From assembly GCA_037440385.1 (NCBI GenBank), contig JBBIUI010000003.1:4533-68532 (forward strand): a DNA stretch of 64,000 nucleotides. The letters are read 5' to 3'. Under the pieces are notes generated by a model that was given only the letters and a program-made list of their open reading frames with translations, did not search any database and was not told the DNA's origin. This document shows, piece after piece, positions 23,606 through 59,017 of the stretch. The position numbers were made by a program, and so were the translations under genes. Position 1 is the first letter of the stretch, and each line of letters opens with the position of its first letter. The DNA is from Rhodocyclales bacterium (GTDB lineage Bacteria > Pseudomonadota > Gammaproteobacteria > Burkholderiales > Rhodocyclaceae).

Positions 23606-23612
23606 CGTCCGG

Positions 23613-27654: not shown

Positions 27655-27670
27655 GCGGGCGTGCGCCCGA

Positions 27671-36782: not shown

Positions 36783-36810
36783 GCCCTGGCCCCCTGACGA
36801 CAAGCGGCAA

Positions 36811-36819
36811 ATTTTAACA
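36811..36819 (-). promoter_or_regulatory. candidate extended -10 (TGtTAAAAT) for the mla operon
   Basis: Reverse complement of attttaaca, about 29 nt upstream of the mlaF GTG, in a locally AT-richer patch. Confidence 0.3.
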
Positions 36820-36919
36820 TGGAAGCATTGGAGGACCTGAGCAGTCTGCCCGCCCGCAGACGAGCGGATTTCGATTCGGCTGCATCGAGGCCGCTGCGAT
36901 TGCGGCGTGCGCGAACGTA

Positions 36920-36953
36920 GCGGATCGATCCGCGCGCACCCTTGCGCTATCAT
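36920..36953 (+). promoter_or_regulatory. perfect 14-bp palindrome GCGGATCGATCCGC followed by a TATCAT -10-like hexamer, upstream of the sigma-54 activator gene
   Basis: Palindrome at 36920-36933, TATCAT at 36948-36953. The TTG start at 36995 is preceded by a GAGGAA Shine-Dalgarno. Confidence 0.3.
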
Positions 36954-36994
36954 GGACCGCGTCATTCGCCCCACGGCCGCAGCGAGGAAACGCC

Positions 36995-38458
36995 TTGTCC
37001 GAACCCCGGAACGCACCCGCCCCGCAGCCCGGGCCGACGCTCGTCATCGTCGACGACGATCCGCTCATCACGGAAACGCTGCGTTACCTGCTCCATGACG
37101 AATTCACGGTCCTGACCGCAGCGACGCGCCGCGAGTGCATCGAGCGCATCCGGCAAGCGGCAACGCCGCCTCGACTCGCGCTGGTCGATCTCGGCCTGCC
37201 GCCGCGGCCGCATCGCCCGGACGAGGGGCTTGCGCTGATCCCCGAGCTGCTCGCGCATGCCCCGCAGGTGCGCATCGTCGTGCTGTCGGGCCAGAACGAC
37301 GAAGCCAGCGCCCGCCACGCACGCGCGCTGGGCGCGGCCGAATTCGTCGCGAAGCCGGCCGACCCTGCGCAGCTCACCCGGATCCTGCACCGGCTGCTCG
37401 ACTTCTCGCCGGCGCCGGCCGAACCGCCGCCCGGCTGCGCGGCGCTGATCGGGGACAGCCTCCCGATCCGGCGGTTGCGCACGCAGGCGCAGCAGGTCGC
37501 CGACTCGGCGTTCCCCGTGCTGATCGAAGGCGAATCGGGTACCGGCAAGGAGATCGTCGCCCACGGCTGCCTGCACCTGGACAGCGCGCGGCGCGACCGG
37601 CCCTACTTCGCGCTGAACTGCGCCGCGATCTCGCCCGCGCTGCTCGAGCCGACGCTGTTCGGCCACGCCCGGGGCGCGTTCACCGGCGCCGCGACGGCCC
37701 GCTCCGGCTACTTCGAGGACGCAGCCGACGGCAGCCTGTTTCTCGACGAGATCGGCGAACTGCCGCTCGATCTCCAGCCCAAGCTGCTGCGCGTGCTGGA
37801 AAACGGCGAATACCAGCGCGTGGGCGAGACCCAGGTGCGCACGGCCCGGGCCCGGGTCATCGCCGCCACCAACCGTGACCTGCGCAGTGAAGTGCGGGCG
37901 GGGCGTTTCCGCGCCGATCTCTATCATCGCCTGAGCGTATTCACGTTGACGATGCCCGCGCTGCGCGACATGGGCGAGGATCGCTTCGTGCTGCTCGATC
38001 ACTACCGGCGGACGTTCTCGCACGGCACCGGCCAGCGCGAATTCGAGTTCACCGGCGAAGCGAAGCGGGTGTGGGCCGGCTACGCGTTCCCCGGCAACGT
38101 GCGCGAGCTGCGCAACATCGTGATCCGGCTGCTGGCAAGCCATGCCGGCGAGACGGTGGACGCCGACACGCTGCGCGCCGAACTCGATTTCGAGGACGAA
38201 CCGCCCGTGCGCGGTGCCCCGCCGCGCAGTGCGGGCGAGCTGGCCGAGCTCGCGCTCGGGCACCTCCAGCGGCGCGAGCCGTTCGACCTCGACCAGACGC
38301 TGGGCCTGTGGGAACGGGCCTACATCGATGCGGCCTTGCGCCTGACCCGCGGCAACGTCAGCCAGGCCGCCAAGCTGCTCGGCATCAACCGGACGACGCT
38401 CTACAACCGCCTGGAAATCCACGCGCGCGAGGATCCCGCGCCGGCCGCCGGGGCGTAG
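36995..38458 (+). CDS. sigma-54-dependent response regulator (REC + AAA+ EBP + Fis-type HTH; PrsR/PilR-like)
   Basis: LVIVDDDP...[10 protein letters not shown] (receiver Asp), GESGTGKE Walker A, intact GAFTGA, C-terminal HTH ([21 protein letters not shown]). Confidence 0.9.
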
Positions 38459-38464
38459 CGGGCC

Positions 38465-39928
38465 ATGTATCTGCAGCAGTTCGGGCTTGCGCAGCCGCCC
38501 TTCCGCATCACGCCGAACACCGGCGCGTTTTTCGAGGGCGCGAACCGCGGCGCGACGCTGGAAGCCCTGCTGTACGCCATCGTCCATGACGAAGGCATCG
38601 TGCAGGTCACCGGCGAAGTCGGTAGCGGCAAGACGATGCTGTTGCGGATGGTGATCGAGCGCCTGCCGGGGCACGTCGACACGGCGTGCCTGGCCGATCC
38701 CAACCTCTCGCGCGACGAACTGCTCCACGCGCTGGCAGACGAACTGCACGCCGGGCCGCCCTCGGGACGGCCCGGCTCCGCGCTGCGCGCGCTGCAGGAG
38801 CGGCTGCTCGAGCTTCACGCGGCCGGCCGCAAGGCGGTCGCGCTGATCGACGAAGCGCACGCGATGCCTGCCGCGACGCTCGAGCAGGTCCGGCTGCTGT
38901 CCAATCTGGAAACGCGCGACGCGAAGCTGCTGCAGATCGTGCTGTTCGGCCAGCCGGAGCTCGAAGGGACGCTGGAGCGGCCCGGCATGCGGCAGTTGAA
39001 GGACCGCATCACCCAGCGTTTCGCGCTCGAACCGCTGCGCGGGCCCGACGTCCCGGCTTACATCGACTTCCGGTTGCGCGCTGCGGGTTACCGCGGAACG
39101 CCGCTGTTCACGCCGGCCGCGGTCCGTCGCATCGGCGTGGCCTCCGCAGGGCTCACCCGGCGCATCAACGTGCTGGCCGACAAGTCGATGCTGGCCGCCT
39201 TCGCGGCCGGCAGGCAGCGCATCGGCACGGCCGAGGTCGCACGCGCGATCCGGGACGCCGCCGGACCGCGCCACGCAGCCAGCGGAAGATACGGGCTGCC
39301 GGCGGCGCTGGCCGCCATCGCGCTGGCTGCGGCGATCGGCTACGTGGCGATCCGGCCCGGGCCCGAGGCGACGCAGGCGATCGCGACGGCCGTCGCGCCG
39401 GCGCAAAGCGCTGCCCGCCCGATCGGCCCGTCGCCCGCGCGGCCGCTCGTGCAGCCGGTCTTGCAGCCGGAAGCGCCCGCAGCGCCGCCGCCCGCCGGGC
39501 CGCCTGCCGCGACGGTGACGGACGGCGGGCCCGGGCCGGCGATCGAGCACGAACCCGCGGCGTCGACGATGCCCGCCGCAAGCGCACCGGTACGGCCGCC
39601 GCAGCGCACCGGCACGCGGATCGAGGCGGCGCTCGAACGTACTGCGAGCCGGCTGGCGGAGAAGCCGGGGGATCGCTGGTTCATCCAGTTGTTGTCCGCG
39701 CGCGAGCAGCGCGCGCCGGAAGTCGAACGCTTTCTCGACGGCGCAGCGCGGCTCGTCGATGAAAACGAGCTCGGCGCCTACCGGGCGCGCATCGACGGCG
39801 AACGGCACCTCGCGGTCCTCTACGGAGATTTTCCCGACCTCGCCTCGGCCAGTGGCGCGCTCCCCCGCCTGCCGGCCGAGTTGCGCGTGTATGGTGCGTT
39901 CCCGCGCCGGCTGCGCGCCGGCGAGTGA
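38465..39928 (+). CDS. ExeA/GspA/MshM-like AAA ATPase with Pro/Ala linker and SPOR-like C-terminal domain
   Basis: MYLQQFGLAQPPFRITPNTGAFF..., GEVGSGKT Walker A, IDEAH Walker B-like. TM-like AALAAIALAAAIGYV. The C-terminus (WFIQLLSAR...LGAYRARIDGERHLAVLYGDFPD) resembles a SPOR fold. Confidence 0.8.
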   Translation: MYLQQFGLAQPPFRITPNTGAFFEGANRGATLEALLYAIVHDEGIVQVTGEVGSGKTMLLRMVIERLPGHVDTACLADPNLSRDELLHALADELHAGPPSGRPGSALRALQERLLELHAAGRKAVALIDEAHAMPAATLEQVRLLSNLETRDAKLLQIVLFGQPELEGTLERPGMRQLKDRITQRFALEPLRGPDVPAYIDFRLRAAGYRGTPLFTPAAVRRIGVASAGLTRRINVLADKSMLAAFAAGRQRIGTAEVARAIRDAAGPRHAASGRYGLPAALAAIALAAAIGYVAIRPGPEATQAIATAVAPAQSAARPIGPSPARPLVQPVLQPEAPAAPPPAGPPAATVTDGGPGPAIEHEPAASTMPAASAPVRPPQRTGTRIEAALERTASRLAEKPGDRWFIQLLSAREQRAPEVERFLDGAARLVDENELGAYRARIDGERHLAVLYGDFPDLASASGALPRLPAELRVYGAFPRRLRAGE

Positions 39929-40011
39929 TCCGCGCCCCCGCGCACGCGCCGATACGCGGAATTGCGAGGGGTTGACCGCCCAGATCATCGTTCTGGCAGC
40001 GGATGTCGCCG

Positions 40012-40020
40012 TGCTATCAT
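40012..40020 (+). promoter_or_regulatory. candidate extended -10 (TGcTATCAT) upstream of the secretin gene
   Basis: gTGcTATCAT at 40011-20, with cTGGCA 16 nt upstream as a weak -35. It lies 40-57 nt before the candidate secretin starts. Confidence 0.3.
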
Positions 40021-40058
40021 CGATTCGCGCCACGTAGCGTGATGGCTCTCCCGCGCCG

Positions 40059-41921
40059 ATGGACCGAAAGGCAACCATGACAGGCCGAACCGCTCTGCTC
40101 CCCGTCGCCCTGTTCGCTGCGCTGGCGGGCGGCTGTTCCAGCCTGCCCCCGCAGCAACCGGCGGCCGGACACCTTCGCGCCGAAAACCTGCCCGCACCCG
40201 CGGCGGGCATCCCGAAACCGGTGCGCCAGTCCGCCGCACTGCCCAGACCGCGACCGGCACCGAAGGCGGAAACCTACAGCGTCGTCGTGAACGAGGTCCG
40301 GGTGCAGGATCTGCTGTTCGCGCTGGCACGCGATGCGAAGGTAAATGTCGATATCCATCCCGGCATCACCGGCACGGTGACGCTGAACGCGATCGACCAG
40401 ACGCTGCCGCAACTGCTGCAGCGCATCGCGAAACAGGTCGACATGCGCTTCGAGCTCGACGGACCGAACCTCGTCGTGATGCCCGACACGCCGTTCCTGC
40501 GCACCTACAAGGTGGATTACGTGAACCTCGCGCGCGACATGAGCGGCACCGTGTCCGTCAACACCCAGATCGGCTCGGCGGGCGGCACCGCCGCCGGCGC
40601 AACGGCACCGTCGGCAGGCGCGAACAGCTCGACGACCGAGGTCAAGAACACCGCCCGCAACCGGTTCTGGGAATCGCTGGAAAGGAACATCAAGGATCTG
40701 CTGCGCGAAACCGACAAGATCCTGCCGGAGGGCTCGAGCGAGACGACGGTCGAGCGCTCGGACGTCCAAAGCACGACCGGAACCGGCACCGCGCCGCCGG
40801 CCCCCGGCGCGAAGCGCACCGCCACCGCGACCGCGACGATCGCCGCGAGCCCGAATCCCGCCACGCTGGCCTCGGGCGCGACCACGGTGGTGCGCCGGAG
40901 CACGTTTCGCGAGGCCGCCTCGGTCATCGCGAACCCGGAGACCGGCATCGTCACGGTGCGCGCCACGTCGCGCCAGCACGAGAAGGTGCAGGAGTTCCTC
41001 GACCACGTGCTCGCGGCTGCGCGCCGCCAGGTGCTGATCGAAGCGACCATCGCGGAGGTGCAGCTCTCTCAGAACTACCAGCAGGGCATCGACTGGCAAT
41101 ACCTTCGCGATCGCGGCAGCCAGGTCGCGATCGGCCAGGGCGGCTCGACCCAGAGCATCACGTCCTCCGGTGCGTTCCAGACGATCACCTCCGCGCTCGG
41201 GGCGAGCGTCGCGAACACCGTCTTCACGCTCGCCTTCCGCAACGGCGGCTTCAGCGCTGCGATCAAGCTGCTCGAATCCTTCGGCACGGTCAAGGTGCTC
41301 TCCAGCCCCAAGCTGTCGGTTCTGAACAACCAGACCGCGATCCTCAAGGTCACCAACAGCGTCGTGTATTTCAGCGTCAAGGCCGACACGACGACGACCC
41401 AGGGCGCGCAGACGACGGCCTTCACGACCACGCCGCAGTCGGTATCGGTCGGACTGGTGCTGACCGTCACCCCGCAGATCAGCGAGGCCGATGCCGTGCT
41501 GCTCAACGTGCGCCCGTCGATCTCGCGGGTGATCGCCTTCAAGAAGGACCCGAATCCGGATCTGACGAAAAACAACGCGCCGGAGAATCTCGTGCCCGAG
41601 ATCGAGACGCGCGAGATGGAATCCGTCATGCGCGTTTCCGACGGTGAGATCGCCGTGCTCGGCGGTCTGATGCAGGACGAGATCGACTATCGCAAGGACG
41701 CGGTGCCGGGCCTGTCCGGCCTGCCGGTCGTCGGCAATCTGTTCAGCCACCGCAACGACACCAATACGAAGACGGAGCTGGTGGTGTTCCTGCGGCCGGT
41801 CATCGTGCGTGACGCCAGCATCCGGGGCGATTACCGCTCGCTGCGCGGCAGCCTGCCGGACGCCGCCTTCTTCCGCAGCGACACCGCCGAAGCGCCGGCG
41901 CAGGGGAGCACCGGGCGGTGA
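40059..41921 (+). CDS. secretin (GspD/PilQ superfamily, MshL-like), lipoprotein
   Basis: LPVALFAALAGGCSS lipobox. N-domains (VRVQDLLFALARDAKVNVDIHPGITGTVTL). Secretin core (VLIEATIAEVQLS...VKVLSSPKLSVLNNQTA...VFLRPVIVRD). An alternative ATG lies at 40077. Confidence 0.85.
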   Translation: MDRKATMTGRTALLPVALFAALAGGCSSLPPQQPAAGHLRAENLPAPAAGIPKPVRQSAALPRPRPAPKAETYSVVVNEVRVQDLLFALARDAKVNVDIHPGITGTVTLNAIDQTLPQLLQRIAKQVDMRFELDGPNLVVMPDTPFLRTYKVDYVNLARDMSGTVSVNTQIGSAGGTAAGATAPSAGANSSTTEVKNTARNRFWESLERNIKDLLRETDKILPEGSSETTVERSDVQSTTGTGTAPPAPGAKRTATATATIAASPNPATLASGATTVVRRSTFREAASVIANPETGIVTVRATSRQHEKVQEFLDHVLAAARRQVLIEATIAEVQLSQNYQQGIDWQYLRDRGSQVAIGQGGSTQSITSSGAFQTITSALGASVANTVFTLAFRNGGFSAAIKLLESFGTVKVLSSPKLSVLNNQTAILKVTNSVVYFSVKADTTTTQGAQTTAFTTTPQSVSVGLVLTVTPQISEADAVLLNVRPSISRVIAFKKDPNPDLTKNNAPENLVPEIETREMESVMRVSDGEIAVLGGLMQDEIDYRKDAVPGLSGLPVVGNLFSHRNDTNTKTELVVFLRPVIVRDASIRGDYRSLRGSLPDAAFFRSDTAEAPAQGSTGR

Positions 41922-43198
41922 GCCTGCTGATGGACGCGCTCAAGCGCGCAGAACGCGCAAGGCGCGAGACGGCGCACGGTGCGACGGCTGCGTCCGATCC
42001 CGCTCCCGCCGCCGAGCCGACACAGGAGCCGAGTTCCGGCGCGCCGGTCGAGGCGCGACCGCCGTCGGACATGGCCACGCGCCTGGAACTGCTCGAGGAG
42101 CGCCTCGAGCCCGGCGGCACGGCCGCGCATGTGCCGGACGACGGTGAGCTCGTGCGCGAGCGCGAAGCCGCGAGGAACCTGTTCGAGGCCAAACCGGCTC
42201 CCGCACGGCATGGCCTGTACTTCGGCATGGCGCTGCTCGCGCTCGCGGCGGCGGCAGCGCTCGCCGGCTACGTCTGGATCGAGACACGGCCGAATTCCGG
42301 CATCGGCTTGCCTGCGGCATTGCGAGCGCCGAAGCCGGAACCCATCGTCACGGCACCCCCGCGCGCGCCTGCGCCCGCCGCGACCCCGGCGGCACCGCCT
42401 GCGGCAGCGCTGCCACCGACTGCGGCGTCGGCCGATGCGACCGCACCGCCGAGCCCGGCGCCTGCGGCAACGGCGGCAGCGCGCGCTCAGGGGTTGCTCG
42501 CGGCGCGCCGGGCACCGCCCGACGGCGCGCAGGCGTCCGCCGACGAAGCCCCGCCGCAGGCGCGCGCCGCGCCCGCCGTACCCCGGCCCGCATCGCCGCG
42601 CATCGCGGTTCGCGTGACCACGGCGCATCCGCGCGTCAACCCCGATCTCGCGGCCGCGTACGCGCTGTACCAGTCGGGAGAGCTGGAGCGCGCCGGTGCG
42701 GCCTACCGGCAGGTGCTGCAATCGGAGCCGAACAACCGCGACGCGCTGCACGGGCTGGCGGCCATCGCGCTGCAAAACGGCGATGCGCAGACCGCGCAGG
42801 AATATCGCCTGCGCGCCCTCGAGGCCGACCCCACGGACGCCGCCGCGATGGCCGCGCTGATCGAGCTTCACAGCGCGGCCGACCCGGTCCGGACCGAGAG
42901 CCGGCTGAAGACACTGATCGCGACCGCGCCGCATGCGGCCGCCGCGCATTTCGCGCTCGGCAACCTGCATGCCGCGAACGGCCGCTGGGCGCAGGCACAG
43001 CAATCCTACTTCGCCGCCTACACGGCCGAGCCTGCGAATGCCGATTATCGGTACAACCTCGCGGTCAGCCTGGACCAGTTGCGCCAGAGCGCGCTCGCAC
43101 TGCGCTTCTATCGCGGTGCCCTCGAGGCTGCAGCGAACGGGCCGGCCGCCTTCGACCGTTCGCAGGTCGAGGCTCGCGTGCGCGAACTCCGGCAGTGA
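41918..43198 (+). CDS. bitopic TPR-repeat protein (MshN/GspB-like)
   Basis: (V)SLLMDALKRAE N-terminus, TM LYFGMALLALAAAAALAGYVWI, Pro/Ala linker, then TPR repeats (AYRQVLQSEPNNRDALHGLAAIAL...). GTGA overlap with the secretin stop. Confidence 0.65.
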   Translation: MSLLMDALKRAERARRETAHGATAASDPAPAAEPTQEPSSGAPVEARPPSDMATRLELLEERLEPGGTAAHVPDDGELVREREAARNLFEAKPAPARHGLYFGMALLALAAAAALAGYVWIETRPNSGIGLPAALRAPKPEPIVTAPPRAPAPAATPAAPPAAALPPTAASADATAPPSPAPAATAAARAQGLLAARRAPPDGAQASADEAPPQARAAPAVPRPASPRIAVRVTTAHPRVNPDLAAAYALYQSGELERAGAAYRQVLQSEPNNRDALHGLAAIALQNGDAQTAQEYRLRALEADPTDAAAMAALIELHSAADPVRTESRLKTLIATAPHAAAAHFALGNLHAANGRWAQAQQSYFAAYTAEPANADYRYNLAVSLDQLRQSALALRFYRGALEAAANGPAAFDRSQVEARVRELRQ

Positions 43199-44934
43199 TG
43201 CGCACGGTGTCTTCCGGCCTGCCGAAGAAACCGCTGACGGAAAAGCGCCGTCCGCTCGGCCAGATCCTGCTCGCCCAGGGCGTGATCTCCGAGGACCAGT
43301 TGCGCATCGCGCTGCTCGAGCAGATGAAGTCGAACCAGCCGGTGGGCAAGCTGCTCGTCGCGCTGGGCTTCGTCTCGGAAGCGACGCTGCGCGACGCGCT
43401 CGGCAAGAGCCTGGGCAAGCGCAGCGTCGACCTGTCGAACGCGATGGTCGATGCCGGTGCGCTGCGCCTGGTGCCGCGCGAGGTGGCCAAGCGCCACCGC
43501 GTGCTCGCGCTCGACTTCGACCGGGAGCGGCACCGGCTGACGCTGGCGACCGCGGATGTCAATGACATCGTCGTCGTCGACAAGGTCCGCGCGCTGCTGC
43601 CCGAGGGCGTCGACGTCGAGACGGTCATCGCCGCCGAGTCCGAGATCCTGCGCGCGATCGACCAGTATTACGGCCACGAGCTGTCCATCGACGGCATCCT
43701 CAACGAGATCGAGACGGGCGAGGTCGACTACCGCTCGCTCGCGGCGTCGACGGACGAATACAGCCAGCCGGTCGTGCGCCTGATCAATGCGCTGATCACC
43801 GACGCGGTCAAGCGGGACGCCTCCGACCTGCATTTCGAGCCGGAGCAGAATTTCCTGCGCATCCGCTACCGCATCGACGGCATCCTTCGCCAGATCCGCG
43901 CGCTCCACAAGTCGTACTGGCCCGCGATGGCGGTGCGCATCAAGGTCGTCAGCGGCATGAACATCGCCGAGACCCGCGCGCCGCAGGACGGGCGGATCTC
44001 GCTGAACATCAGCGGACGGCCGGTCGACTTTCGGGTATCCGCGCAGCCCACCCTCCACGGCGAGAACATCGTGCTGCGCATCCTCGACCGGCAGAAGGGG
44101 CTGGTGCCGCTCGACCGGCTCGGGCTCGAGGAATCCCAGCTCGACCTGCTGAACCTGATGATCGCGCGCCCGGAAGGGTTGATCCTGGTGACCGGCCCGA
44201 CCGGCAGCGGCAAGACCACGACGCTGTACTCGATCCTCAACCAGATCAACTCCGAGGCGATCAACGTGATGACCCTCGAGGATCCGGTGGAGTATCCGCT
44301 CGGCATGATCCGCCAGACCTCGATCGCCGATGCGCTGAAGCTCGACTTCGCCAACGGCGTGCGCTCGATGATGCGGCAGGATCCCGACGTCATCCTGGTC
44401 GGCGAGATCCGCGACGCCGACACCGCGCAGATGGCGTTTCGCGCCGCGATGACCGGCCACCAGGTCTATTCGACGCTGCATACGAATTCGGCGCTCGGCG
44501 CGCTGCCGCGGCTGGCCGACATCGGCATCCTCGCCGACATCATGGCCGGCAACATCATCGGCGTGATCGCGCAGCGGCTGGTGCGCAAGCTGTGCGTGCA
44601 TTGCCGGCGTGCGTATGCGGCCGAGCCGCACGAGGCGAGGCTGCTCGGCGTCGCGCCCGGCGAGCCGGCCCCGCGCATCTATCGTGCGGTCGGCTGCGAG
44701 GCATGCGAATACCAGGGCTATCGCGGGCGCCAGGCGCTGATCGAAATCCTGCGAATGGACGCCGATCTGGACGAGCTCGTCGCACGCCGGGCGACGCTGC
44801 GCGAGCTGCGCGCCGCCGCGAGCGCGAAGGGATTCCGGCCGCTCGCCGAAGACGGCCTGCGGCGCGTGCTCGACGGAACGACCTCGCTCGACGAGGTCGC
44901 ACGCGTCGTCGATCTGACCGGACGCATGGCCTAG
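43195..44934 (+). CDS. GspE/PilB/MshE-family secretion ATPase with MshEN-like N-terminal domain
   Basis: GPTGSGKTTT Walker A, ILVGEIRD Walker B, tetracysteine CVHC...CEAC. N-terminal LGQILLAQGVISEDQLRIALLEQ repeat pair. Start is either GTG 43195 or ATG 43198. Confidence 0.9.
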   Translation: MMRTVSSGLPKKPLTEKRRPLGQILLAQGVISEDQLRIALLEQMKSNQPVGKLLVALGFVSEATLRDALGKSLGKRSVDLSNAMVDAGALRLVPREVAKRHRVLALDFDRERHRLTLATADVNDIVVVDKVRALLPEGVDVETVIAAESEILRAIDQYYGHELSIDGILNEIETGEVDYRSLAASTDEYSQPVVRLINALITDAVKRDASDLHFEPEQNFLRIRYRIDGILRQIRALHKSYWPAMAVRIKVVSGMNIAETRAPQDGRISLNISGRPVDFRVSAQPTLHGENIVLRILDRQKGLVPLDRLGLEESQLDLLNLMIARPEGLILVTGPTGSGKTTTLYSILNQINSEAINVMTLEDPVEYPLGMIRQTSIADALKLDFANGVRSMMRQDPDVILVGEIRDADTAQMAFRAAMTGHQVYSTLHTNSALGALPRLADIGILADIMAGNIIGVIAQRLVRKLCVHCRRAYAAEPHEARLLGVAPGEPAPRIYRAVGCEACEYQGYRGRQALIEILRMDADLDELVARRATLRELRAAASAKGFRPLAEDGLRRVLDGTTSLDEVARVVDLTGRMA

Positions 44935-44960
44935 CGCGCCGCGCGGGGCTGCCGACGACC

Positions 44961-46163
44961 GTGGCCGTGTACAGCTACAAGGCGATGGATCCGCGCGGCC
45001 GGATCGTGTCCGGCCAGATCGAGGCCGTCAACGCGGTCGACCTCGAGATGCGCCTCAAGCGCATGAGTCTCGATTTCATCGACGGCGCACCGCGTTCGGG
45101 GCAAGCGTGGCATGCCGGCCGCGGCGTGCCGCGGCGCGAGCTGATCAACTTCTGCTTCCATCTCGAGCAACTGGTGCATGCGGGCGTGCCCATCCTCGAA
45201 GGGCTCGCCGACCTGCGCGACTCGATCGCGCAACCGCGCCTGCGCGCGGTGGTCGCCGGCATCATCGAGAGCATCGGGGGCGGACGCACGCTGTCGCAGG
45301 CATTGGTCGAGGCGCCCGACGTGTTCGACCGGGTCTTCGTCAGTCTGGTGCGCGCCGGCGAGCAGACCGGCAGGCTGCCGGAGGTGCTGCGCAACCTGTC
45401 CGAATCGCTCAAGTGGGAGGACGAGCTCGCTTCCCACACGAAGAAGCTGGTCATCTACCCCGTGATCGTCGGCACCATCGTGCTCGCCGTCACCGCCTTC
45501 ATGATGATCTACCTGGTGCCCCAGATGGCGAGCTTCTTCCGGATGACCGGGCACGAGCTGCCGCCGCAGACGGTGCTGTTGATCGCGGTATCGAAGCTGT
45601 TCGTCGATCACTGGGCGGCGCTCGCCGGGGTGCCGATCCTGGCCGTGCTCGCGCTGCGCATGCTGATCCGCAACAACCCGCTCGCGCGCTACCGGTTCGA
45701 TGCGTTCAAGCTGGCGCTGCCGGTCGCCGGCCCGATCCTGCGCAAGATCATCCTGTCGCGCTTCGCCGGGGTGCTCGCGATGATGTATTCCGCCGGCATT
45801 CCGCTGATCGACGCCGTGCGCACGACCGAGGAGGTCGCAGGCAATGCCGTCATTCGCGCAGGGCTGCACCGCGCCGGCGAGCTGATGTCCGAGGGACACA
45901 ACGTCACCGCGGCGTTCGATGCCACCGGGCTGTTCCCGCCGCTGGTGCTGCGCATGCTGCGGGTGGGCCAGAACACCGCCGCGCTCGATGCCGCGCTCGC
46001 CAACGTCGGCTATTTCTACAACCGCGACGTGCGCGAGGCGATCGAGAAGCTCCAGGCGGTGATCGAGCCCGGCCTGACGCTGGTGCTCGGCATGCTGCTG
46101 CTGTGGGTGATGCTCTCGGTGCTCGGGCCGGTCTACGACATCATCGCCCGCCTGAAATTCTGA
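44961..46163 (+). CDS. GspF/PilC/MshG-family inner-membrane platform protein
   Basis: (V)AVYSYKAMDPRGRIVSGQIEA... Two T2SSF-type repeats (LEQLVHAGVPILEGL / LAMMYSAGIPLIDAV), 3 TM. GTG at 44961 is in frame with the over-extended track ORF. Confidence 0.85.
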   Translation: MAVYSYKAMDPRGRIVSGQIEAVNAVDLEMRLKRMSLDFIDGAPRSGQAWHAGRGVPRRELINFCFHLEQLVHAGVPILEGLADLRDSIAQPRLRAVVAGIIESIGGGRTLSQALVEAPDVFDRVFVSLVRAGEQTGRLPEVLRNLSESLKWEDELASHTKKLVIYPVIVGTIVLAVTAFMMIYLVPQMASFFRMTGHELPPQTVLLIAVSKLFVDHWAALAGVPILAVLALRMLIRNNPLARYRFDAFKLALPVAGPILRKIILSRFAGVLAMMYSAGIPLIDAVRTTEEVAGNAVIRAGLHRAGELMSEGHNVTAAFDATGLFPPLVLRMLRVGQNTAALDAALANVGYFYNRDVREAIEKLQAVIEPGLTLVLGMLLLWVMLSVLGPVYDIIARLKF

Positions 46164-46168
46164 CCGCC

Positions 46169-47719
46169 ATGGCCGCCGTGCGCCTGCTCCACCTCGATGC
46201 CGCGCGCCTGACCGCGTACCGGTGGGCCGGTTCGCATCCGGTGGAGGAAGGCCGCTACGCGAACGACCCGGGCGGATGGAAAGCCTTCCACGGCTATTCT
46301 CTGAGCCACCCGCGCAGCGTCTATCGGCTGCTCGCCGACATCCAGGACGAAGGCTTCGGTTTCGAGTCGATTCCGTATGTCATGGGCGCCGACCGCAAGG
46401 CGCTGATCCGTCGCAAGCTCGGCCAGCATTTCCTCGGCACGCCGTTTACCTGCGCGATCTCGCACGGGCGCGATCCGGCCGGGCGGCGCGACGAGCGCAT
46501 GCTGTTTCTCGCGCTGACCCGCGCGCAACTGTTGGAGCCCTGGCTCGCCGCGCTGCGCGCCGCGCAGGCCCAGCTCGCCGGCATCTACTCGGCCCCGCTG
46601 GTGTGCCAGGCACTGGCCGGCGCGCTCAAGCTCGAACGCGCCGGCGAAGCGGTGCTGCTGGTCACCAGTGGAGCGTCGGGCGTGCGCCAGAGCTGTTTCG
46701 TCGAGGGCAGGCTGCGCTTCTCCCGCCTTTCGGCGCTCACCGGGGACGGCGTTGCCGAACGGGCCCGCATCTGCGCCGAGGAACCCGCGAAGCTCTACCA
46801 GTATCTCGTCGGCCAGCGCATCCTCGCGCGCGGCACGCGCCTGCCGACGATCGTGCTGTGCGATCCGTCCGAGCGCGCGATGCTCGCCGCGGCCTGCCCG
46901 AGCGCAGGCGAACTGGAGTTCGATTTCGCCAGCCTGCGCGCGGCCGAGTCGGCCTGCGGCCTGCGCGGCACGCACACGGGCGGATCGGCCGATTCGCTGT
47001 TGCTGCACCTGCTCGCAACCCGGCCGCCGAAAGTCCAGTTCGCACCCGAACCGGATCGCCACCTGTACCGCATCGGGCAGGTGCGATTCGCGATGCTCTC
47101 GGGCGCGGCGATCGTGCTCGCCGGCTGTGTGCTCGCCTCGGCCAAGCACCTGTACGAGGCCCGGGCGGTGCGCGAGCAGGCACGCGCGGTGGTCCTGGAG
47201 GCCGGCGAGTATGCGGCCCGCCATCGCGCGATCCTGGACCGGCTGCCTCCCGTGCCGGCGGCGCTCGAGGATGTGCGCGCCGTGGTCGATCGCTACGAGG
47301 AAATCGAGCGGCGCTCGGCGCCGATCGAACCGATGCTGCGACACATCAGCCAAGCGCTGGAAGCGGTTCCGGAGATCGAGCTCGAACGCGTGGAATGGCA
47401 GCTGACGACCCGCCCGGAGGAGGCCGGCGCGAGCATCCCGGGGGCGGCGAATCGCGCGGCTGCGCGCGCCCAGGACCGCATGCTCGCCGTGGCCGTCGTG
47501 TCGGCCGCGATCGAGGCTGCGGCGCAGGGCGATCGCCGGCGCATCTTCGAAACGATCGAGGAATTCGCGGCGGCGTTCAGGCGTGACCCGGACGTGCAGG
47601 TGGGCATCGTGCAACGGCCCTTCGACATCGATCCGGGGCGCGCGCTCAAGAGCGCCGGTGGCGACGGCACGGGCGTCGCGCGCTTCGTGCTGCGCGTGAG
47701 CTACCCTGTGCGGCCATGA
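46169..47719 (+). CDS. 516-aa bitopic assembly protein (GspL- or MshI/PilM-PilN-fusion-like topology)
   Basis: About 320-aa cytoplasmic part, one TM (FAMLSGAAIVLAGCVLASA), and a coiled-coil periplasmic part. Position after the platform gene; ATG at 46169 is in frame with the 870-aa track ORF. The assignment rests on topology and context only. Confidence 0.55.
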   Translation: MAAVRLLHLDAARLTAYRWAGSHPVEEGRYANDPGGWKAFHGYSLSHPRSVYRLLADIQDEGFGFESIPYVMGADRKALIRRKLGQHFLGTPFTCAISHGRDPAGRRDERMLFLALTRAQLLEPWLAALRAAQAQLAGIYSAPLVCQALAGALKLERAGEAVLLVTSGASGVRQSCFVEGRLRFSRLSALTGDGVAERARICAEEPAKLYQYLVGQRILARGTRLPTIVLCDPSERAMLAAACPSAGELEFDFASLRAAESACGLRGTHTGGSADSLLLHLLATRPPKVQFAPEPDRHLYRIGQVRFAMLSGAAIVLAGCVLASAKHLYEARAVREQARAVVLEAGEYAARHRAILDRLPPVPAALEDVRAVVDRYEEIERRSAPIEPMLRHISQALEAVPEIELERVEWQLTTRPEEAGASIPGAANRAAARAQDRMLAVAVVSAAIEAAAQGDRRRIFETIEEFAAAFRRDPDVQVGIVQRPFDIDPGRALKSAGGDGTGVARFVLRVSYPVRP

Positions 47720-48321
47720 ACGTCACGCACGAGGACGTGCTGCGACTGCGCACCGGTGCGGTGCTGGCGATCGCGATCGTGCTGGCCGGCGTGTCGCTGG
47801 TGCTGCTCACCAGCCGCTGGCACCGCGCCGAAGACGACGCCGCGCGCCGGGCGGTAGCCGCGCGAGATGCGATGCGCGCGAGCCTGGTCCGTGCACACCG
47901 CGAACAGGACGAACTCACCCGCAAGATCGAGCGCTTCAACCGCCTCGCGGCCGCGGGGCGGATCGGAGAGGAGCGCCGGCTGGACTGGGCGGAACGGATC
48001 AGGGCGATCGAGACCGCGCGCAGGCTCGATCCGGTGCGCTACGAGATCGCGCCGCGCCGGCCGCTCGATCCGGCGCTGTCGGCGGCGACGGGCGGGCATT
48101 TCGAATTCCTCGCCAGCAGCATGCGCATCGAGATGCGGCTGCTGCACGAGGGGGATCTGATCGCGCTGCTCGACGACCTGCAGGGCTCGGTGACCGCACT
48201 GGTACGCCCGCGCGCCTGCACGATCGAGCGGCTCGCATGGCAAGGCGAACCGGCCGGCCGCGCCACGCTGAAGGCGCAATGCACGATGGACTGGATCACG
48301 ATCCGCGAGGGGGCACGCTGA
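47716..48321 (+). CDS. 201-aa bitopic protein (GspM/PilO/MshJ-like)
   Basis: N-terminal TM (GAVLAIAIVLAGVSLVLLTS) plus coiled coil. ATGA overlap with the upstream gene. Assignment by context and topology. Confidence 0.5.
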   Translation: MNVTHEDVLRLRTGAVLAIAIVLAGVSLVLLTSRWHRAEDDAARRAVAARDAMRASLVRAHREQDELTRKIERFNRLAAAGRIGEERRLDWAERIRAIETARRLDPVRYEIAPRRPLDPALSAATGGHFEFLASSMRIEMRLLHEGDLIALLDDLQGSVTALVRPRACTIERLAWQGEPAGRATLKAQCTMDWITIREGAR

Positions 48322-48782
48322 TGCGGCCGGACCTGCGCAGCACAGCCGGGCGGCGCCGCGCGGCGCTGCGGCTCGTCGCGCTCGTGGCGGGTGTGCCGAT
48401 CGCCGCGTCGGCGGCAGGCGAGCCGCTCGGCAGGCTGTTCTTCACGCCGCAGGAACGCGCCCGGCTCGAACGGCAGAGAGGGGCGGACTCGCCCGGCGAT
48501 GCGGCCGCGCGACCCTCCTCGGTTCGCGTCGGCGGCGTGGTCGCGCGCTCCGGCGGGCGCAATACCGTATGGCTGAACGGCACCGCGCTCGACGCCGCGG
48601 GTCACGACCGCCCGGTCGAGCTGCGACCGAACTCGCCCGCGACGGTGGTGGTACGCGTCGAGCCGGGCAGGACGGCCCGACTGAAGGTCGGCGAGTCGAT
48701 CGACCTGCCGGGCGGCGACAAGCACGACGCGCTCGGCGGGGGGCGGGTCGTCGTCTCCGCACCGGCCAGGACGTCGAAATGA
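48321..48782 (+). CDS. 153-aa secreted protein (PilP/GspC-HR/MshK-like)
   Basis: Signal peptide RRRAALRLVALVAGVPIAASAAG. VRVGGVVARSGGRNTVWLNGTAL resembles the x-INGxxV beta-domain of MshK/PilP. TGATG coupling. Confidence 0.45.
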   Translation: MRPDLRSTAGRRRAALRLVALVAGVPIAASAAGEPLGRLFFTPQERARLERQRGADSPGDAAARPSSVRVGGVVARSGGRNTVWLNGTALDAAGHDRPVELRPNSPATVVVRVEPGRTARLKVGESIDLPGGDKHDALGGGRVVVSAPARTSK

Positions 48783-49948
48783 ATTCCCCGGCCGTCCCGT
48801 GCCGGGGCCCTCGCACGCAGCGCGGAGCCGTGTTGATGGTGCTGCTCGTGCTGTTCGTGGCGGTCGGCGCCTATCTGCTGGTGTCGCGGCTCGGCGCCGC
48901 ACAGCTGCGCAGCGCGCGCGGCAGCACCGCCGCGCTCGCGATGGCACGCGACGCGCTGATCGGGCGCGCGCTCGCGGACGACAACCGGCCCGGCAGCCTG
49001 CCGTGCCCGGACACCGATGACGATGGCGCGGTCAACGGGGTCGCCGGCAATTGCACCTCTTCCTACCTCGGCAGGCTGCCCTGGAAGACGATGGGGCTTG
49101 CCGATCTGCGCGACGCGGCCGGCGAACGGCTGTGGTATGTGCTGTCGCCCGCGTTGCGCGACAACGAGGCCGCCTGGCCGATCAACGGCGACACGCATGC
49201 CACGCTCACCGTAGACGGTGCGGACGAAATCGCGGCGGTCGTGTTCGCCCCCGGCGCGGCGCTCGCAGGCCAGAACGGCCGTCCGGGAAACGCCGTCGCC
49301 GACTATCTCGAAGGCGCCAACGCGGACGGTGACGACGCATACCGCACCGGTGCGCCCGGCGAAGCCTTCAATGACAGGCTTCTGGTCGTGCGGCGAAGCG
49401 AGCTGATGCACGCGGTCGCCTCGCGCATCGCCGGCGAAGCGCTGAAGTGCCTGCATGACTTCGCGGCCGCGAATTCGGGGCGTTATCCCTGGGCCGCGGA
49501 CGTGACCGCATCGGCCTCCGGAAATTACAGCGACACCGACAGAACGCACTTCGGCCGGTTGCCCCATGGCTTGGACGCGACTTCGGCATCGCTGGGGATC
49601 ACCGCATCCTGGCCCGCGGGTTGCGGCCTCGCGTCGCCGTGGTGGGCAGACAACGGCTGGGGGCAGTTCGTGTTCTATTCGCTGGCTCCGGAATTCGCGC
49701 CGGACGCGGCTCCCTCGCCGGTCTGTGCGGGAAGTTGCCTCGCGGTCGCCAATGCCGCCGGCGGTACCGATGTCAGGGTGGTCGTGATCGTCGCAGGCGA
49801 GCCCCTGTCCGGGCAGCACCGCGTGACGGCCGCGGACAGGAGCGGTGTCGCGAACTACCTGGAAGGGGAGAACGCGACGCCTGCCGACGGCAGGTTCGAG
49901 CGACGCGCCCCCGGTACGGCATTCAATGACGTCGTCGTTTTCGAATAA
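48779..49948 (+). CDS. 389-aa pseudopilin-like protein with GspK-type N-terminus (no Glu5)
   Basis: RTQRGAVLMVLLVLFVAVGAYLLV resembles the GspK QRG-hydrophobic N-terminus. ATGA overlap with the upstream gene. Shares an ALIGxA..LPCP motif with the next ORF. Confidence 0.5.
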   Translation: MNSPAVPCRGPRTQRGAVLMVLLVLFVAVGAYLLVSRLGAAQLRSARGSTAALAMARDALIGRALADDNRPGSLPCPDTDDDGAVNGVAGNCTSSYLGRLPWKTMGLADLRDAAGERLWYVLSPALRDNEAAWPINGDTHATLTVDGADEIAAVVFAPGAALAGQNGRPGNAVADYLEGANADGDDAYRTGAPGEAFNDRLLVVRRSELMHAVASRIAGEALKCLHDFAAANSGRYPWAADVTASASGNYSDTDRTHFGRLPHGLDATSASLGITASWPAGCGLASPWWADNGWGQFVFYSLAPEFAPDAAPSPVCAGSCLAVANAAGGTDVRVVVIVAGEPLSGQHRVTAADRSGVANYLEGENATPADGRFERRAPGTAFNDVVVFE

Positions 49949-50792
49949 GCTCGCGGCGCGGCGCGGCTGCCGGGGCTTCACGCTCGCCGAACTGGCCATC
50001 GTGCTGCTGGTGGTCGCGGTGCTGCTGGGCGGCCTGCTGATGCCCCTGTCCGCCCAGATCGAGCAGCGCAATCTGGAGGAGACCCGGCGCCGGCTCGATG
50101 AGGTGCGCGAGGCGCTGATCGGATTCGCCGAAGCGAACGGACGCCTGCCGTGCCCGGCTTCGGCGACGAGCGACGGCAGGGAGGCGTTTTGCACCGGTGC
50201 GAGCGGCGCCTGCGGACCCGAGCTGTACGCCCCGCCCGACCCGAATCACGGTCGTTGCGCCGCGTTCTACGACGGCTTCGTACCCGCGGTCACGCTCGGC
50301 CTCGCGCCGGTCGATTCTCAGGGATACCTGCCAGACGCCTGGGGGACGAGCGCGCGCAATCGCATCCGCTACGCGGTCGCCCCGAACACGGTCGCGGGAG
50401 TCGATTACGCGTGGACCGGCTCGGGCCCCGGCAGGGGACCCCGGGCGGCGGGCCTGACCAACCTGGGCGAGGTCTCGAAACAATATCTGTGGGTCTGCTC
50501 GGGCCTGCCCAATACGGAGACGGGCGGCTCGTGCGATCCCGCCGTCAAGCTGACCGACAACGCACCGGCCCTCGTGTATTCGGTCGGAAAGAACGCGACC
50601 GATCCCGCCAGCGGCACGACCGGCGACGAAGCCGCGAACCCGAACCCGAACGGCGGCACCGCGGACCAGACTTTCGTCAGCCGCACCTCGTCCCCGGCAG
50701 GTGCCGCAGGGGGGCAGTTCGACGACATCGTCACCTGGGTGCCGCTGCCCGTGCTGCTCAACCGCATGGTCGCCGCCGGCCAGCTTCCATGA
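49926..50792 (+). CDS. 288-aa prepilin-type (N-methylation site) pseudopilin
   Basis: Leader MTSSFSNKLAARRGCRG / FTLAELAIVLLVVAVLLGGLL: Gly-1, Phe+1, Glu+5. Start trimmed from the track ORF; overlaps the upstream gene by 23 nt. Confidence 0.7.
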   Translation: MTSSFSNKLAARRGCRGFTLAELAIVLLVVAVLLGGLLMPLSAQIEQRNLEETRRRLDEVREALIGFAEANGRLPCPASATSDGREAFCTGASGACGPELYAPPDPNHGRCAAFYDGFVPAVTLGLAPVDSQGYLPDAWGTSARNRIRYAVAPNTVAGVDYAWTGSGPGRGPRAAGLTNLGEVSKQYLWVCSGLPNTETGGSCDPAVKLTDNAPALVYSVGKNATDPASGTTGDEAANPNPNGGTADQTFVSRTSSPAGAAGGQFDDIVTWVPLPVLLNRMVAAGQLP

Positions 50793-51141: not shown

Positions 51142-52434
51142 GTGACGGATCGCGAATCGAGCTTCTTCCACCGCCTGCGAACCGCGGGAATCACCTCGCG
51201 CGACAGCGAGGAGCAGCGTTTGAACAAGACGCTGCTGGTGTTCGCGACCGGGCTCGTCACGCTCACCTCCACGCTGTGGCTCGCGATCTACTGGAGCCTG
51301 GGCCTGCGCCTTTCCGCGACGCTTCCGCTCGCCTTCGAAGCGCTGCTCACCGCCAACCTGCTCGCCTACGTGCGGACGGGAAACTTTTCGTTCTTCCGCA
51401 GCTCCCAGCTCGCGCTGTTCCTGTTCTTTCCGTTCGTCGTGCAGTGGAGCCTGGGCGACGCGCTGGCCGCGAGCGGTGTCGTCCTGTGGGGCCTGCTCGC
51501 GCCGGTGGGCGCCATCCTGTTCCTGGGCGCGCGCGAGTCGGCACCGTGGTTTGCCGCCTATGTCTTCCTGATCGTGCTGAGCGGCGCGTTCGACTATTTG
51601 CTCGCGGACTCCGCGCTGCGCGCACGCGTCGCCGTTCCGCTGCGCACCAGCATGGTGTTCTTCGCGCTGAACTTCGTTGCGGTGTCGAGCATCGTCTATG
51701 CGCTGCTGCGCCTGGCCGCCGTCGAGAAGGACAAGGCCAGGGCGAGGCTCGTCGAGGCGCACGTGCGGCTGCGCGCCGAGCAGGAACGGGCCGAACACCT
51801 GCTGCTCAACATCCTGCCCGGCCCGGTGGCGGAACGGCTCAAGCGCAACGAACAGGCGATCGCGGACGGTTTCGCGGACGTGACCGTGATGTTCGTCGAT
51901 ATCGTCGACTTCACGCATGTCGCCGAAGGGATGTCGCCGAACGAGGTGTTCTCGATGCTCAACCGCATCTTCTCGTCGTTCGACGATCTCGCCGAGCGCT
52001 TCGGCCTGGAGAAGATCAAGACGATAGGCGACGCCTACATGGTCGCCGGCGGACTGGACCGCCGCAACCCGGATTACTGCGCCTCGATCGCGGAGATGGC
52101 GCTCGCGATGCGCGAGCTGCTGCGGCGCGATCGCGCGGTGAATTCCGCGTCTGTGGAAATCCGCATCGGCATCGGCACCGGACCGGTGGTCGCAGGCGTC
52201 GTCGGCAAGAAGAAGTTCATCTACGACCTGTGGGGCGACACGGTCAACATCGCCAGCCGCATCACCTCCGAAGGCGTGCCGGGCATGATCCAGGTCGATA
52301 CCACGACGTACCGGCGGCTGCGCGAGCGCTTCCAGTTCCATGAGCCGCAGACGATCTACCTGAAGGGCAAGGGCGACACGACCGTATATCGGATGATGGG
52401 AAAGAAGCCGATCGCCGGCCGCGCGGCACCCTGA
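51142..52434 (+). CDS. membrane-anchored class III adenylate cyclase
   Basis: About 6 N-terminal TM helices. Catalytic domain VMFVDIVDFT (metal Asp pair), KIKTIGDAYMV, IYDLWGDTVNIASR. The Lys/Asp specificity pair suggests ATP as substrate. GTG start. Confidence 0.85.
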   Translation: MTDRESSFFHRLRTAGITSRDSEEQRLNKTLLVFATGLVTLTSTLWLAIYWSLGLRLSATLPLAFEALLTANLLAYVRTGNFSFFRSSQLALFLFFPFVVQWSLGDALAASGVVLWGLLAPVGAILFLGARESAPWFAAYVFLIVLSGAFDYLLADSALRARVAVPLRTSMVFFALNFVAVSSIVYALLRLAAVEKDKARARLVEAHVRLRAEQERAEHLLLNILPGPVAERLKRNEQAIADGFADVTVMFVDIVDFTHVAEGMSPNEVFSMLNRIFSSFDDLAERFGLEKIKTIGDAYMVAGGLDRRNPDYCASIAEMALAMRELLRRDRAVNSASVEIRIGIGTGPVVAGVVGKKKFIYDLWGDTVNIASRITSEGVPGMIQVDTTTYRRLRERFQFHEPQTIYLKGKGDTTVYRMMGKKPIAGRAAP

Positions 52435-54184: not shown

Positions 54185-54406
54185 CGGCAGCCAAGCGCTC
54201 GATGCGCGAAGCGACGCCAAGCCTCGTGCTCGACGCGGGGTTTCGCCTCAGACCGATCTTGCATTCCTGTGCGCCCTTCGCGTTGCCCGCGGGGGATGTT
54301 CCGGAATCCGGGCGATTGTAGCCGCGGGTCGCCCCGCATGCGACCGTGTCGACGTTCTTGACGGCTCGCGCAAGCCGAACGGATCGAACGAAAGCGAATC
54401 AACATC

Positions 54407-55156: not shown

Positions 55157-55241
55157 GGACATTTGCCAACTATTGCACACAAACGTCCGAATACCGACAG
55201 TTTTTCATCCGCGAACCGTTGCGTGCGCTCGCGGCCGCGCA

Positions 55242-55257
55242 CGGCATCGTTCTTGCT
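55242..55257 (+). promoter_or_regulatory. sigma-54 (-24/-12) promoter candidate cGGCATcgttcTTGCt for the pilin gene
   Basis: Aligns to TGGCACG-N4-TTGCW in exact register (GG at 55243-44, GC at 55255-56). GGAGG Shine-Dalgarno at 55280-84 and ATG at 55292. Confidence 0.6.
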
Positions 55258-57922: not shown

Positions 57923-57999
57923 TTGTCGCGGTCGGCGGTCGGGGACGGGGACGGGGCGGGTGATATACTCCCGCGCCGAATATAAACCCGTTGTCTGGA

Positions 58000-58983: not shown

Positions 58984-59017
58984 TGACATCCGGATCGCCG
59001 GCGCGAGGTGCCCGCAC

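Follow-up and report, generated by a model that had tools for sequence, protein, structure and literature searches.

In the 64,000-nucleotide stretch of contig JBBIUI010000003.1 from a Rhodocyclales bacterium (GenBank assembly GCA_037440385.1; this whole stretch is hereafter the window, GC content ~69%), positions 36995-50792 hold eleven open reading frames (ORFs), g1 to g11, all on the forward strand, which make up a complete and conserved type IV filament locus. Genes g1 to g6 encode standard parts of such a filament, and the locus as a whole probably encodes an adhesive type IV pilus of the mannose-sensitive haemagglutinin type (MSH; MSHA in Vibrio and Aeromonas). An earlier note on this DNA had described eleven co-directional ORFs joined mostly by overlaps, and on re-reading the coordinates and junctions matched, with start/stop overlaps of GTGA at 41918 and 43195, ATGA at 47716 and 48779, and TGATG at 48321. 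The overlap between g10 and g11 spans 23 nt (g11 ATG at 49926), short gaps separate g1/g2, g5/g6 and g6/g7, and a 130-bp gap lies 5' of the secretin gene g3. The starts of g2, g6, g7, g8, g9, g11 and of a pilin gene farther downstream are identical to independent calls in a public protein collection. Domains were searched with Pfam and NCBIfam, and transmembrane (TM) helices and signal peptides were assigned by hydropathy, which bore out the domain identities and topologies first proposed. Single TM helices were found in g2, g4, g7 (307-325) and g8, and hydrophobic N-terminal segments of pilin type in g10, g11 and the ORF at 55292. The eleven genes are as follows:

36995..38458 (+): g1, NtrC-type response regulator and sigma-54 enhancer-binding protein (Response_reg, Sigma54_activat, HTH_8)
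38465..39928 (+): g2, MshM-type AAA ATPase with a weakly SPOR-like periplasmic C-terminus (AAA_22; BLASTP; TM helix 278-296)
40059..41921 (+): g3, MshL-family secretin, probably a lipoprotein (LAGGC) (Secretin, TIGR02519)
41918..43198 (+): g4, bitopic protein with tetratricopeptide repeats (TPR), at the place of MshN (TPR families, residues 244-400; TM helix 103-121)
43195..44934 (+): g5, MshE-type extension ATPase with N-terminal MshEN motifs for binding of cyclic di-GMP (c-di-GMP) (T2SSE, MshEN, NF053729)
44961..46163 (+): g6, GspF/PilC/MshG platform protein (two T2SSF domains)
46169..47719 (+): g7, 516 aa, PilM-like cytoplasmic domain, TM helix and periplasmic alpha/beta domain (AlphaFold2 model, Foldseek)
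47716..48321 (+): g8, bitopic 201-aa protein, putatively GspM/PilO/MshJ-like (TM helix 13-31; weak T2SSM)
48321..48782 (+): g9, secreted 153-aa protein, putatively like PilP, MshK or the HR (homology region) domain of GspC (signal peptide, conserved core)
48779..49948 (+): g10, 389-aa pilin-like protein without Glu5 (N-terminus QRG/AVLMVLLVLFV; AlphaFold2 model)
49926..50792 (+): g11, 288-aa type IV pilin-like protein (RG/FTLAELAIV; N_methyl, TIGR02532)

Motor, secretin and MshM-type ATPase

Affinity to MSH systems or to type II secretion systems (T2SS) was judged from pairwise BLASTP scores against one Aeromonas MSHA cluster and the E. coli Gsp proteins. The reference cluster was that of Aeromonas caviae NZ_AP026896.1, with its genes read by ORF order as I1-I2-J-K-L-M-N-E-G-F-B-A-C-D-O-P-Q, and a Legionella MSH-like locus and the E. 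coli gsp locus were used as further comparison loci. The secretin g3 passed the MshL model TIGR02519 (273.3 bits, cutoff 250.2) and stayed below the cutoffs for GspD (194 vs 351) and PilQ (127 vs 284), and its BLASTP scores were 139-141 bits to Aeromonas and Legionella MshL and 102 bits to GspD. The ATPase g2 shared 43.8% identity with Aeromonas MshM over 272 aa (206 bits, E 8e-66), with no significant BLASTP match to E. coli GspA; the SPOR match at its C-terminus was sub-threshold (E 0.017, and 0.009 in the orthologue of comparison locus L005). For g5, the domain scores were 416 bits for T2SSE and 55.9 bits for MshEN (cutoff 23.1), and the MshE-related c-di-GMP motif model NF053729 was passed (59.1, cutoff 38). 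This ATPase aligned end to end with Aeromonas MshE (38% identity, 364 bits) and in the catalytic core only with GspE (330 bits), missed the equivalog cutoffs for GspE (513 vs 630) and PilB (512.6 vs 675.65), and matched PilB (404 bits), GspE (373) and MshEN 5htl (65) in the PDB. The platform protein g6 scored 181 bits to MshG against 154 to GspF and fell below the GspF equivalog cutoff (278 vs 424). As judged from their sequences, g2, g3, g5 and g6 are nearer to the canonical Aeromonas MSHA proteins than to the E. coli T2SS proteins. This BLASTP pattern indicates that the motor, the pore and the MshM part are of MSH type, and the scaffold and minor-pilin part appears either to have diverged past sequence recognition or to have been replaced.

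The tandem MshEN motifs were kept in all ten g5 orthologues examined, a conservation that supports c-di-GMP gating of extension, as described for MshE of V. cholerae (PMC4624765). From its position, g4 may have an MshN-like role.

Several side observations concern these genes and the reference. NZ_AP026896.1 (pKAM479_3, Aeromonas caviae; 4.94 Mb, 18 annotated features), listed as a plasmid in PLSDB, is evidently a misfiled chromosome and carries the full MSHA cluster. In L006 (1131-3872) one called 913-aa product takes in both the sigma-54 activator and the MshM-like ATPase, in L005 (3436-3768) a 110-aa ORF of its own carries the SPOR-like tail of the MshM-like protein, and L013 lacks an MshM-like gene altogether.

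Inner scaffold proteins

No Pfam or NCBIfam family matched g7, g8, g9 or g10, even at E = 5. A word-index search gave 41 relatives of g7, all labelled hypothetical, from Rhodocyclaceae, Sterolibacteriaceae and Viridibacterium, and a profile search of 1.84 billion representatives (50% clustering) gave 2973 with E <= 1e-3, of which 1430 had E <= 1e-30. The AlphaFold2 model of g7, built from 40 sequences (mean predicted local distance difference test, pLDDT, 88.6), consists of an N-terminal alpha/beta domain (1-290), a long helix (294-358) that includes the TM segment, and a second alpha/beta domain at the C-terminus. Its top PDB matches by Foldseek were the PilM structures 5eou, 2ych and 3jc8 (E 1.5e-9, probability 1.00), and it also matched the EpsL/GspL cytoplasmic domains 1yf5, 1w97, 4pht and 5tkw. 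On this model, g7 is predicted to be a PilM-PilN-type fusion with the architecture of GspL and MshI.

The g8 family (494 members, no Pfam match) combines a TM helix with a charged helical region, and its C-terminal domain is conserved. T2SSM of Pfam was weakly matched by 2 of 60 family members (best E 7.8e-4), and in hhalign g8 was collinear with the TM and periplasmic half of g7 at non-significant values (E 0.007-0.02, probability <6%); a search of its profile against PDB sequences returned nothing relevant. The protein g9 carries, after its signal peptide, the conserved core LGRLFFTP...G-V-RS-GK-TVWING...KVGE. It had no match among Pfam, NCBIfam and PDB sequence profiles, and gave a short non-significant alignment (E 0.1) with a region of E. 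coli GspC that we take to be the start of the HR domain. Compared by hhalign with E. coli GspM, GspL and GspC and with the Legionella proteins in the MshJ/K positions, g8 and g9 stayed below 1% probability. The hhalign comparison of g7 with GspL was equally negative despite the clear fold match, so that the hhalign negatives for g8 and g9 carry little weight. Position, size and topology, together with the weak matches, suggest that g8 is GspM/PilO/MshJ-like and g9 PilP/MshK-like.

Two large paralogous pilin-like proteins

The g10 family has more than 1036 relatives, including ones from Gallionellaceae and Accumulibacter, which have no Pfam family and are labelled hypothetical or (JGI) PulG. 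The AlphaFold2 model of g10, built from 84 sequences, was highly confident (pLDDT 93.1, predicted TM-score 0.86) and shows an N-terminal helix of about 50 residues (16-66), typical of pilins, followed by a large globular domain. The N-terminus presumably resembles that of GspK or PilX-type minor pilins, and we would guess at a tip or priming role for the protein. For g11, N_methyl was matched at 25 bits (cutoff 21.2), and TIGR02532 was matched as well. When the g11 family was aligned with the g10 family by hhalign, the probability was 99.7% (E 1.2e-26) over g10 residues 8-211, and on this alignment g11 clearly appears to be a paralogue of the first half of g10. The two proteins have REALIG-A...LPCP in common; the motif LPCPDTDxDG is conserved in the g10 family, and a DxDxDG-like acidic loop occurs in that family and in some g11 orthologues.

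The g10 orthologues of two other loci are enlarged, to ~1100 aa in L007 (12641-15955) and 1024 aa in L008 (12476-15550). In L008, matches to g10 and to g11 share a single continuous reading frame that was left uncalled, either a real fusion or a product of runs of N.

Major pilin candidate and its sigma-54 promoter

The features outside g1 to g11 that bear on the pilin and on regulation are the following:

39993..40020 (+): weak sigma-70-like promoter with an extended -10 element (TG-TATCAT) before the secretin operon (consensus match only)
51142..52434 (+): membrane (~6 TM) class III adenylate/guanylate cyclase (Guanylate_cyc 189 bits; TM helices)
52451..54220 (-): sensor histidine kinase with ~7 TM helices, the presumed partner of g1 (HATPase_c; seven hydrophobic segments)
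54497-55156 (+): gene of a PEP-CTERM (exosortase-sorted) protein, between kinase and pilin
55185..55198 (+): GTC-N8-GAC dyad lying ~45 bp upstream of the -24 element, a candidate site for the enhancer-binding protein
55243..55257 (+): sigma-54 -24/-12 promoter GGCAT-N5-TTGCT of the pilin gene (strict pattern scan)
55292..55930 (+): major pilin candidate, 212 aa (QSG/FTLVEIAIV...), with a C-terminal Cys pair (N_methyl)

The 212-aa protein, whose gene lies 4.5 kb downstream of the cluster, matched N_methyl at 30.5 bits (cutoff 21.2). Its residues 7-34 (G7 to I34) are near-invariant across six loci (26 of 28 columns), and the C-terminal VC...VC pair is kept in four of the six. The closest PDB sequences are type IV pilus pilins, and MshA and MshB are resembled, in both cases by the N-terminal helix only.

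The downstream trio of cyclase, kinase and a 205-226-aa pilin is conserved in L004, L005 and L010. The cyclase follows g11 in L001, L004, L005 and L010 (57-86% identity) and is absent from L006, L007, L008 and L013; the kinase lies on the minus strand in L004, L005, L010 and L013. L013 has kinase and pilin, and L006, L007 and L008 are without the downstream tail. The PEP-CTERM gene occurs only in the close relatives of the window (L003 and L010, the latter with a 34%-identical PEP-CTERM protein at the equivalent spot, 17970-18674), with no counterpart in L004, L005 or L013. The three genes before the pilin had first been taken as unrelated to the cluster. Conservation with the cluster in other genomes means that the cyclase and the kinase are not unrelated, and the description still suits the clade-specific PEP-CTERM gene.

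A loose sigma-54 scan was uninformative in DNA of 69% GC, and a strict pattern was used. GGCAY-N5-TTGCW matched once in the 64-kb window on both strands, 35 bp upstream of the pilin ATG; by chance, ~0.5 matches would be expected per window and ~5e-4 in the 135-bp spacer on the correct strand. Among 14 fetched loci, TGGCAY-N5-TTGCW had four matches, all 47-55 bp upstream of a pilin orthologue (L004, L005, L010, L011). The GTC-N8-GAC dyad was exact in three of four aligned pilin upstream regions and may be the activator site. Neither g1 nor the secretin operon nor the cyclase has a conserved sigma-54 site upstream, and no convincing one was seen upstream of the PEP-CTERM gene. At the place equivalent to the sigma-70-like promoter, L004, L005 and L006 have TATCAT, TATCAC or TAGCAT-like -10 elements. 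The dedicated sigma-54 control proposed in the earlier note is supported, and narrowed to the pilin gene, by this unique promoter and its repetition upstream of pilin orthologues.

The activator gene g1 (Sigma54_activat, 207.6 bits) opens the cluster in every complete locus. A PilR-like role of g1 and a PilS-like role of the kinase seem likely, and on the simplest reading the two switch on the pilin gene in a PilS/PilR-like circuit. As in the PilS/PilR-sigma-54-pilA systems of Pseudomonas and Myxococcus, a multi-TM kinase and an NtrC-type activator are present, and the pilin gene has a -24/-12 promoter just upstream. Unlike in those systems, the nearest family models of the regulators are PrsK and PrsR, kinase and activator lie 14 kb apart on opposite strands, and a class III cyclase belongs to the module.

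Conservation and genomic context

A single-protein contig scan gave two loci, and more were obtained by exact-protein look-ups. The gene order recurs in Viridibacterium curvum, in metagenome-assembled genomes of Sterolibacteriaceae, Rhodocyclaceae and Propionivibrio, and on other metagenome contigs, so that the neighbourhood comparison called for at the outset places the cluster in synteny across betaproteobacterial genomes. Identity to the window proteins runs from 72-88% for g5 down to ~30-65% for g7-g11. The cluster always adjoins mlaF/mlaE (35198-37016, minus strand, in the window), and where the contig extends it precedes kef, kdsD, kdsC, lptC, lptA and lptB (kef/kdsD at 57991-60162, plus strand, in the window). 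A neighbourhood of this kind is usually followed by rpoN, a gene that was not itself seen in loci L004-L014 or in the window.

Neither Peptidase_A24 nor PilT was found in the ~32 window ORFs scanned, a set that did not include a few small ORFs such as 59018-59590, 60169-60945 and 61044-61871. The window does carry one gene of interest in this respect:

4631-7438 (-): protein of 935 aa, N-terminal FimV domain (131.6 bits)

FimV is associated with type IVa pili, and its gene suggests that the genome probably has a separate type IVa pilus system able to supply PilD and PilT in trans.

In the literature we found no characterisation of the locus and no study of it in Rhodocyclales; "MSHA pilin clusters" have been noted in Gallionellaceae genomes at the annotation level only (PMC10734482).

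Assignment to the MSH class and rival explanations

In the MacSyFinder TFF-SF definition of Denise et al. (2019), an MSH system has mshA, E, G, L and M as mandatory parts in a single locus with no peptidase, and the prepilin peptidase is missing from MSH loci as a class (PMC6668835); in V. cholerae the PilT of the MSHA system is an orphan (PMC9815625). The present cluster contains four of the mandatory parts, MshL, MshE, MshG and MshM, in a single locus without a prepilin peptidase among the ORFs scanned. As in the MSHA systems of Vibrio cholerae and Aeromonas, there is an MshL lipoprotein secretin, an MshM-type ATPase, an MshE with MshEN, an MshG-like platform, a TPR protein after the secretin, no prepilin peptidase or PilT at the locus, and a trio of I/J/K size (516, 201 and 153 aa here; ~290+197, 215 and 107 aa in Aeromonas). 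The differences are also considerable: the order is M-L-N-E-G-I-J-K rather than I-J-K-L-M-N-E-G-F; a single fused gene encodes the I-like protein; g4, g7, g8, g9 and the pilin-like proteins lack BLAST-level similarity to MshI/J/K/N/O/P/Q; the MshM homologue has a TM helix and a periplasmic tail; and sigma-54 activator, kinase and cyclase are built into the locus. BLASTP against Aeromonas found no match to MshB/C/D/O/P/Q minor pilins, MshF or MshN beyond pilin N-termini, and in place of MshF and the small MshB/C/D there are the two large paralogous LPCP-motif proteins.

These results sustain the earlier description of a variant MSHA-class system, with the MshL cutoff passed and four core proteins scoring above their Gsp counterparts. 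In the gene order then proposed, M, L, E and G hold by BLASTP and the I-like gene by the fold of g7, J and K are presumptive, and N went undetected. Small MshB/C/D-type pilins are indeed missing from the window, where the only pilin-type N-termini are those of g10, g11 and the ORF at 55292. The reported lack of a peptidase and PilT holds for the ORFs scanned and is no peculiarity, being the rule for MSH loci. As to structural similarity of the ORFs at 46169-49948 to alignment proteins of type IV pili or T2SS, it was found for g7 (PilM, GspL), and g10 had no PDB match.

We consider it probable that the locus encodes an MSH-type adhesive type IV pilus, and a pilus is favoured because of the MshL/MshM/MshE/MshG affinities, the ~205-residue pilin with a Cys pair, the PilS/PilR-like control and the lack of GspC, GspG-K and a conserved cargo gene. 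Several results weigh against this assignment. From g7 to g11 there is no BLAST similarity to Aeromonas MshI/J/K/O/P/Q beyond pilin N-termini, g4 has no significant similarity to Aeromonas MshN (BLASTP E 0.2), g8 and g9 showed no significant sequence or structural tie to PilO/GspM or PilP in PDB profile searches and hhalign (<6%), and the g10 model had no relative in the PDB by Foldseek (best E 3.9). Both MshEN motifs in the g5 clade start P-L/V-G with the Arg one position earlier (43195-43400 and orthologues), and the more distant L013 and L014 keep the canonical R-L-G start. The sigma-54 motif is missing at two of the six pilin loci, the same L013 and L014. Peptidase and PilT went unseen within the 64-kb window. 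Finally, the best family matches of the pilin N-terminus were GspG and GspH, by the N-terminus only, and the secretin-E-F...L-like-M-like gene order resembles a T2SS operon.

The last two points lead to the alternative of a T2SS-like machine, in which a short periplasmic pseudopilus of the 212-aa protein, with a g10/g11 cap, would push folded cargo through the secretin. With the order secretin-ATPase-platform-(L-like)-(M-like), the operon is like gspD-E-F...L-M of E. coli, where a GspL-like bitopic protein is likewise followed by a GspM-sized one; g7 is a single fused GspL-like protein matching EpsL/GspL cytoplasmic domains, and the weak family matches of g8 are to T2SSM. The best family matches of g11, too, were GspG and GspH by its N-terminus, the GspE score of g5 (513) equals its PilB score (512.6), and g2 has the ExeA/GspA-like layout of ATPase, TM helix and peptidoglycan-type domain. 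Yet the secretin lies above the MshL cutoff and below that of GspD, the GspE and GspF cutoffs were missed as well, each of the four core proteins has a higher score to its MSHA than to its Gsp counterpart, and BLAST shows no relation of g2 to E. coli GspA. There was no GspC with HR and PDZ domains and no match to the GspH-I-J-K set, nor was a conserved candidate cargo gene seen in the loci compared. The ATPase carries MshEN c-di-GMP motifs, and the pilin is ~205 aa long with a conserved C-terminal Cys pair, which is a feature of pilins rather than pseudopilins. We therefore regard a T2SS-like machine as unlikely. The type IVa pilus set was not found either: the PilQ and PilB cutoffs were missed, PilM and PilN are fused in g7, and PilT was not seen in the window. 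A pilus for DNA uptake (competence) within the lineage of type IVa and MSH pili seems very improbable, for although type IV filament machines with a secretin are known in general to be able to mediate it (PMC6668835), no ComEA, ComEC or DprA-type genes were found in the locus or the scanned parts of the window, and c-di-GMP-gated MshE-type ATPases are associated with attachment (PMC4624765).

A further explanation would assign the regulators to the PEP-CTERM/exosortase circuitry of flocculation, with its PEP-CTERM proteins and exopolysaccharide, and make the filament genes co-regulated passengers. It draws on the PEP-CTERM gene between kinase and pilin, with its counterpart in L010, and on the best NCBIfam matches of g1 (PrsR), g2 (XrtA-associated ATPase, TIGR03015), g4 (PrsT) and the kinase, whose C-terminus is weakly PrsK-like. 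All four scores are nevertheless far below the cutoffs of this XrtA/PEP-CTERM regulatory set (330 vs 502.6, 190.5 vs 324.5, 54 vs 312.2 and 47.8 vs 300, respectively), the MshM identity of g2 stands against an XrtA origin, and no exosortase or exopolysaccharide genes were found in the window. L004, L005 and L013 lack the PEP-CTERM gene, and it is the pilin gene, not this one, that has a convincing sigma-54 promoter. With its family matches sub-threshold and its gene not conserved, the exosortase explanation was rejected as improbable.

Proposed mechanism and significance

For an MSH-type adhesive pilus, the parts could work together as follows. The kinase would phosphorylate g1, which would switch on the pilin gene through sigma-54 in the manner of PilS/PilR at pilA, and the machine operon would be transcribed from the sigma-70-type promoter. 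The ATPase g2, by its weakly SPOR-like end, and the TPR protein g4 may help the secretin through the peptidoglycan into the outer membrane, and g7, g8 and g9 would form the inner-membrane alignment complex linking ATPase to secretin. The paralogues g10 and g11 may prime assembly and cap the fibre, replacing the usual four small minor pilins, and c-di-GMP bound to g5 would license extension. A type IVa pilus system encoded at another genomic site would provide the prepilin peptidase and, for a retracting pilus, PilT, and the output would be a pilus for surface adhesion or aggregation.

The locus is distinctive in its rearranged order, the fused I-like gene, the two large paralogous pilin-like proteins, the TM-anchored MshM, and the built-in activator, kinase and cyclase. 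It is possible, if rather doubtful, that the g7-g11 module marks a distinct, unclassified betaproteobacterial sub-type of type IV filament, which would combine a motor and secretin of MSH type with a fused, GspL-like scaffold, two large LPCP-DxDxDG paralogues in place of the near-universal four small minor pilins, and its own PilS/PilR-like sigma-54 switch with a membrane cyclase next to the rpoN neighbourhood.

To our knowledge, hardly any MSH-class pili are known outside Vibrio, Aeromonas, Shewanella and Pseudoalteromonas. The present locus would be a widespread, conserved betaproteobacterial version of them, the g7 family alone counting ~3000 clusters at 50% identity, with carriers in groups relevant to wastewater and groundwater (Rhodocyclaceae, Accumulibacter, Azonexus, Gallionellaceae). 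Its main interest lies in the unmatched g10/g11 fold and the sigma-54 circuit. Two such large pilin-like paralogues, with a confident fold that has no PDB match, would be informative about the priming and the tips of type IV filaments, and the sigma-54 promoter offers a testable regulatory link from kinase through activator to pilin. Together with c-di-GMP gating, the circuit could matter for attachment and for floc or biofilm formation. Since five of the protein families are not covered by Pfam or NCBIfam (g11 at its N-terminus only, by N_methyl/TIGR02532), annotation pipelines will report an incomplete machine.

Searches of plasmids by tblastn gave no matches for g7 and g10. Elsewhere in the window, the plus-strand ORFs 2989-3567, 23235-24521 and 27404-29035, chosen by bias of GC at third codon positions, had no Pfam match at 1e-5 and may be wrong-frame calls. 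The remainder of the window consists of housekeeping genes (trp, leu, his, aro, mla and tatC), together with the FimV gene.

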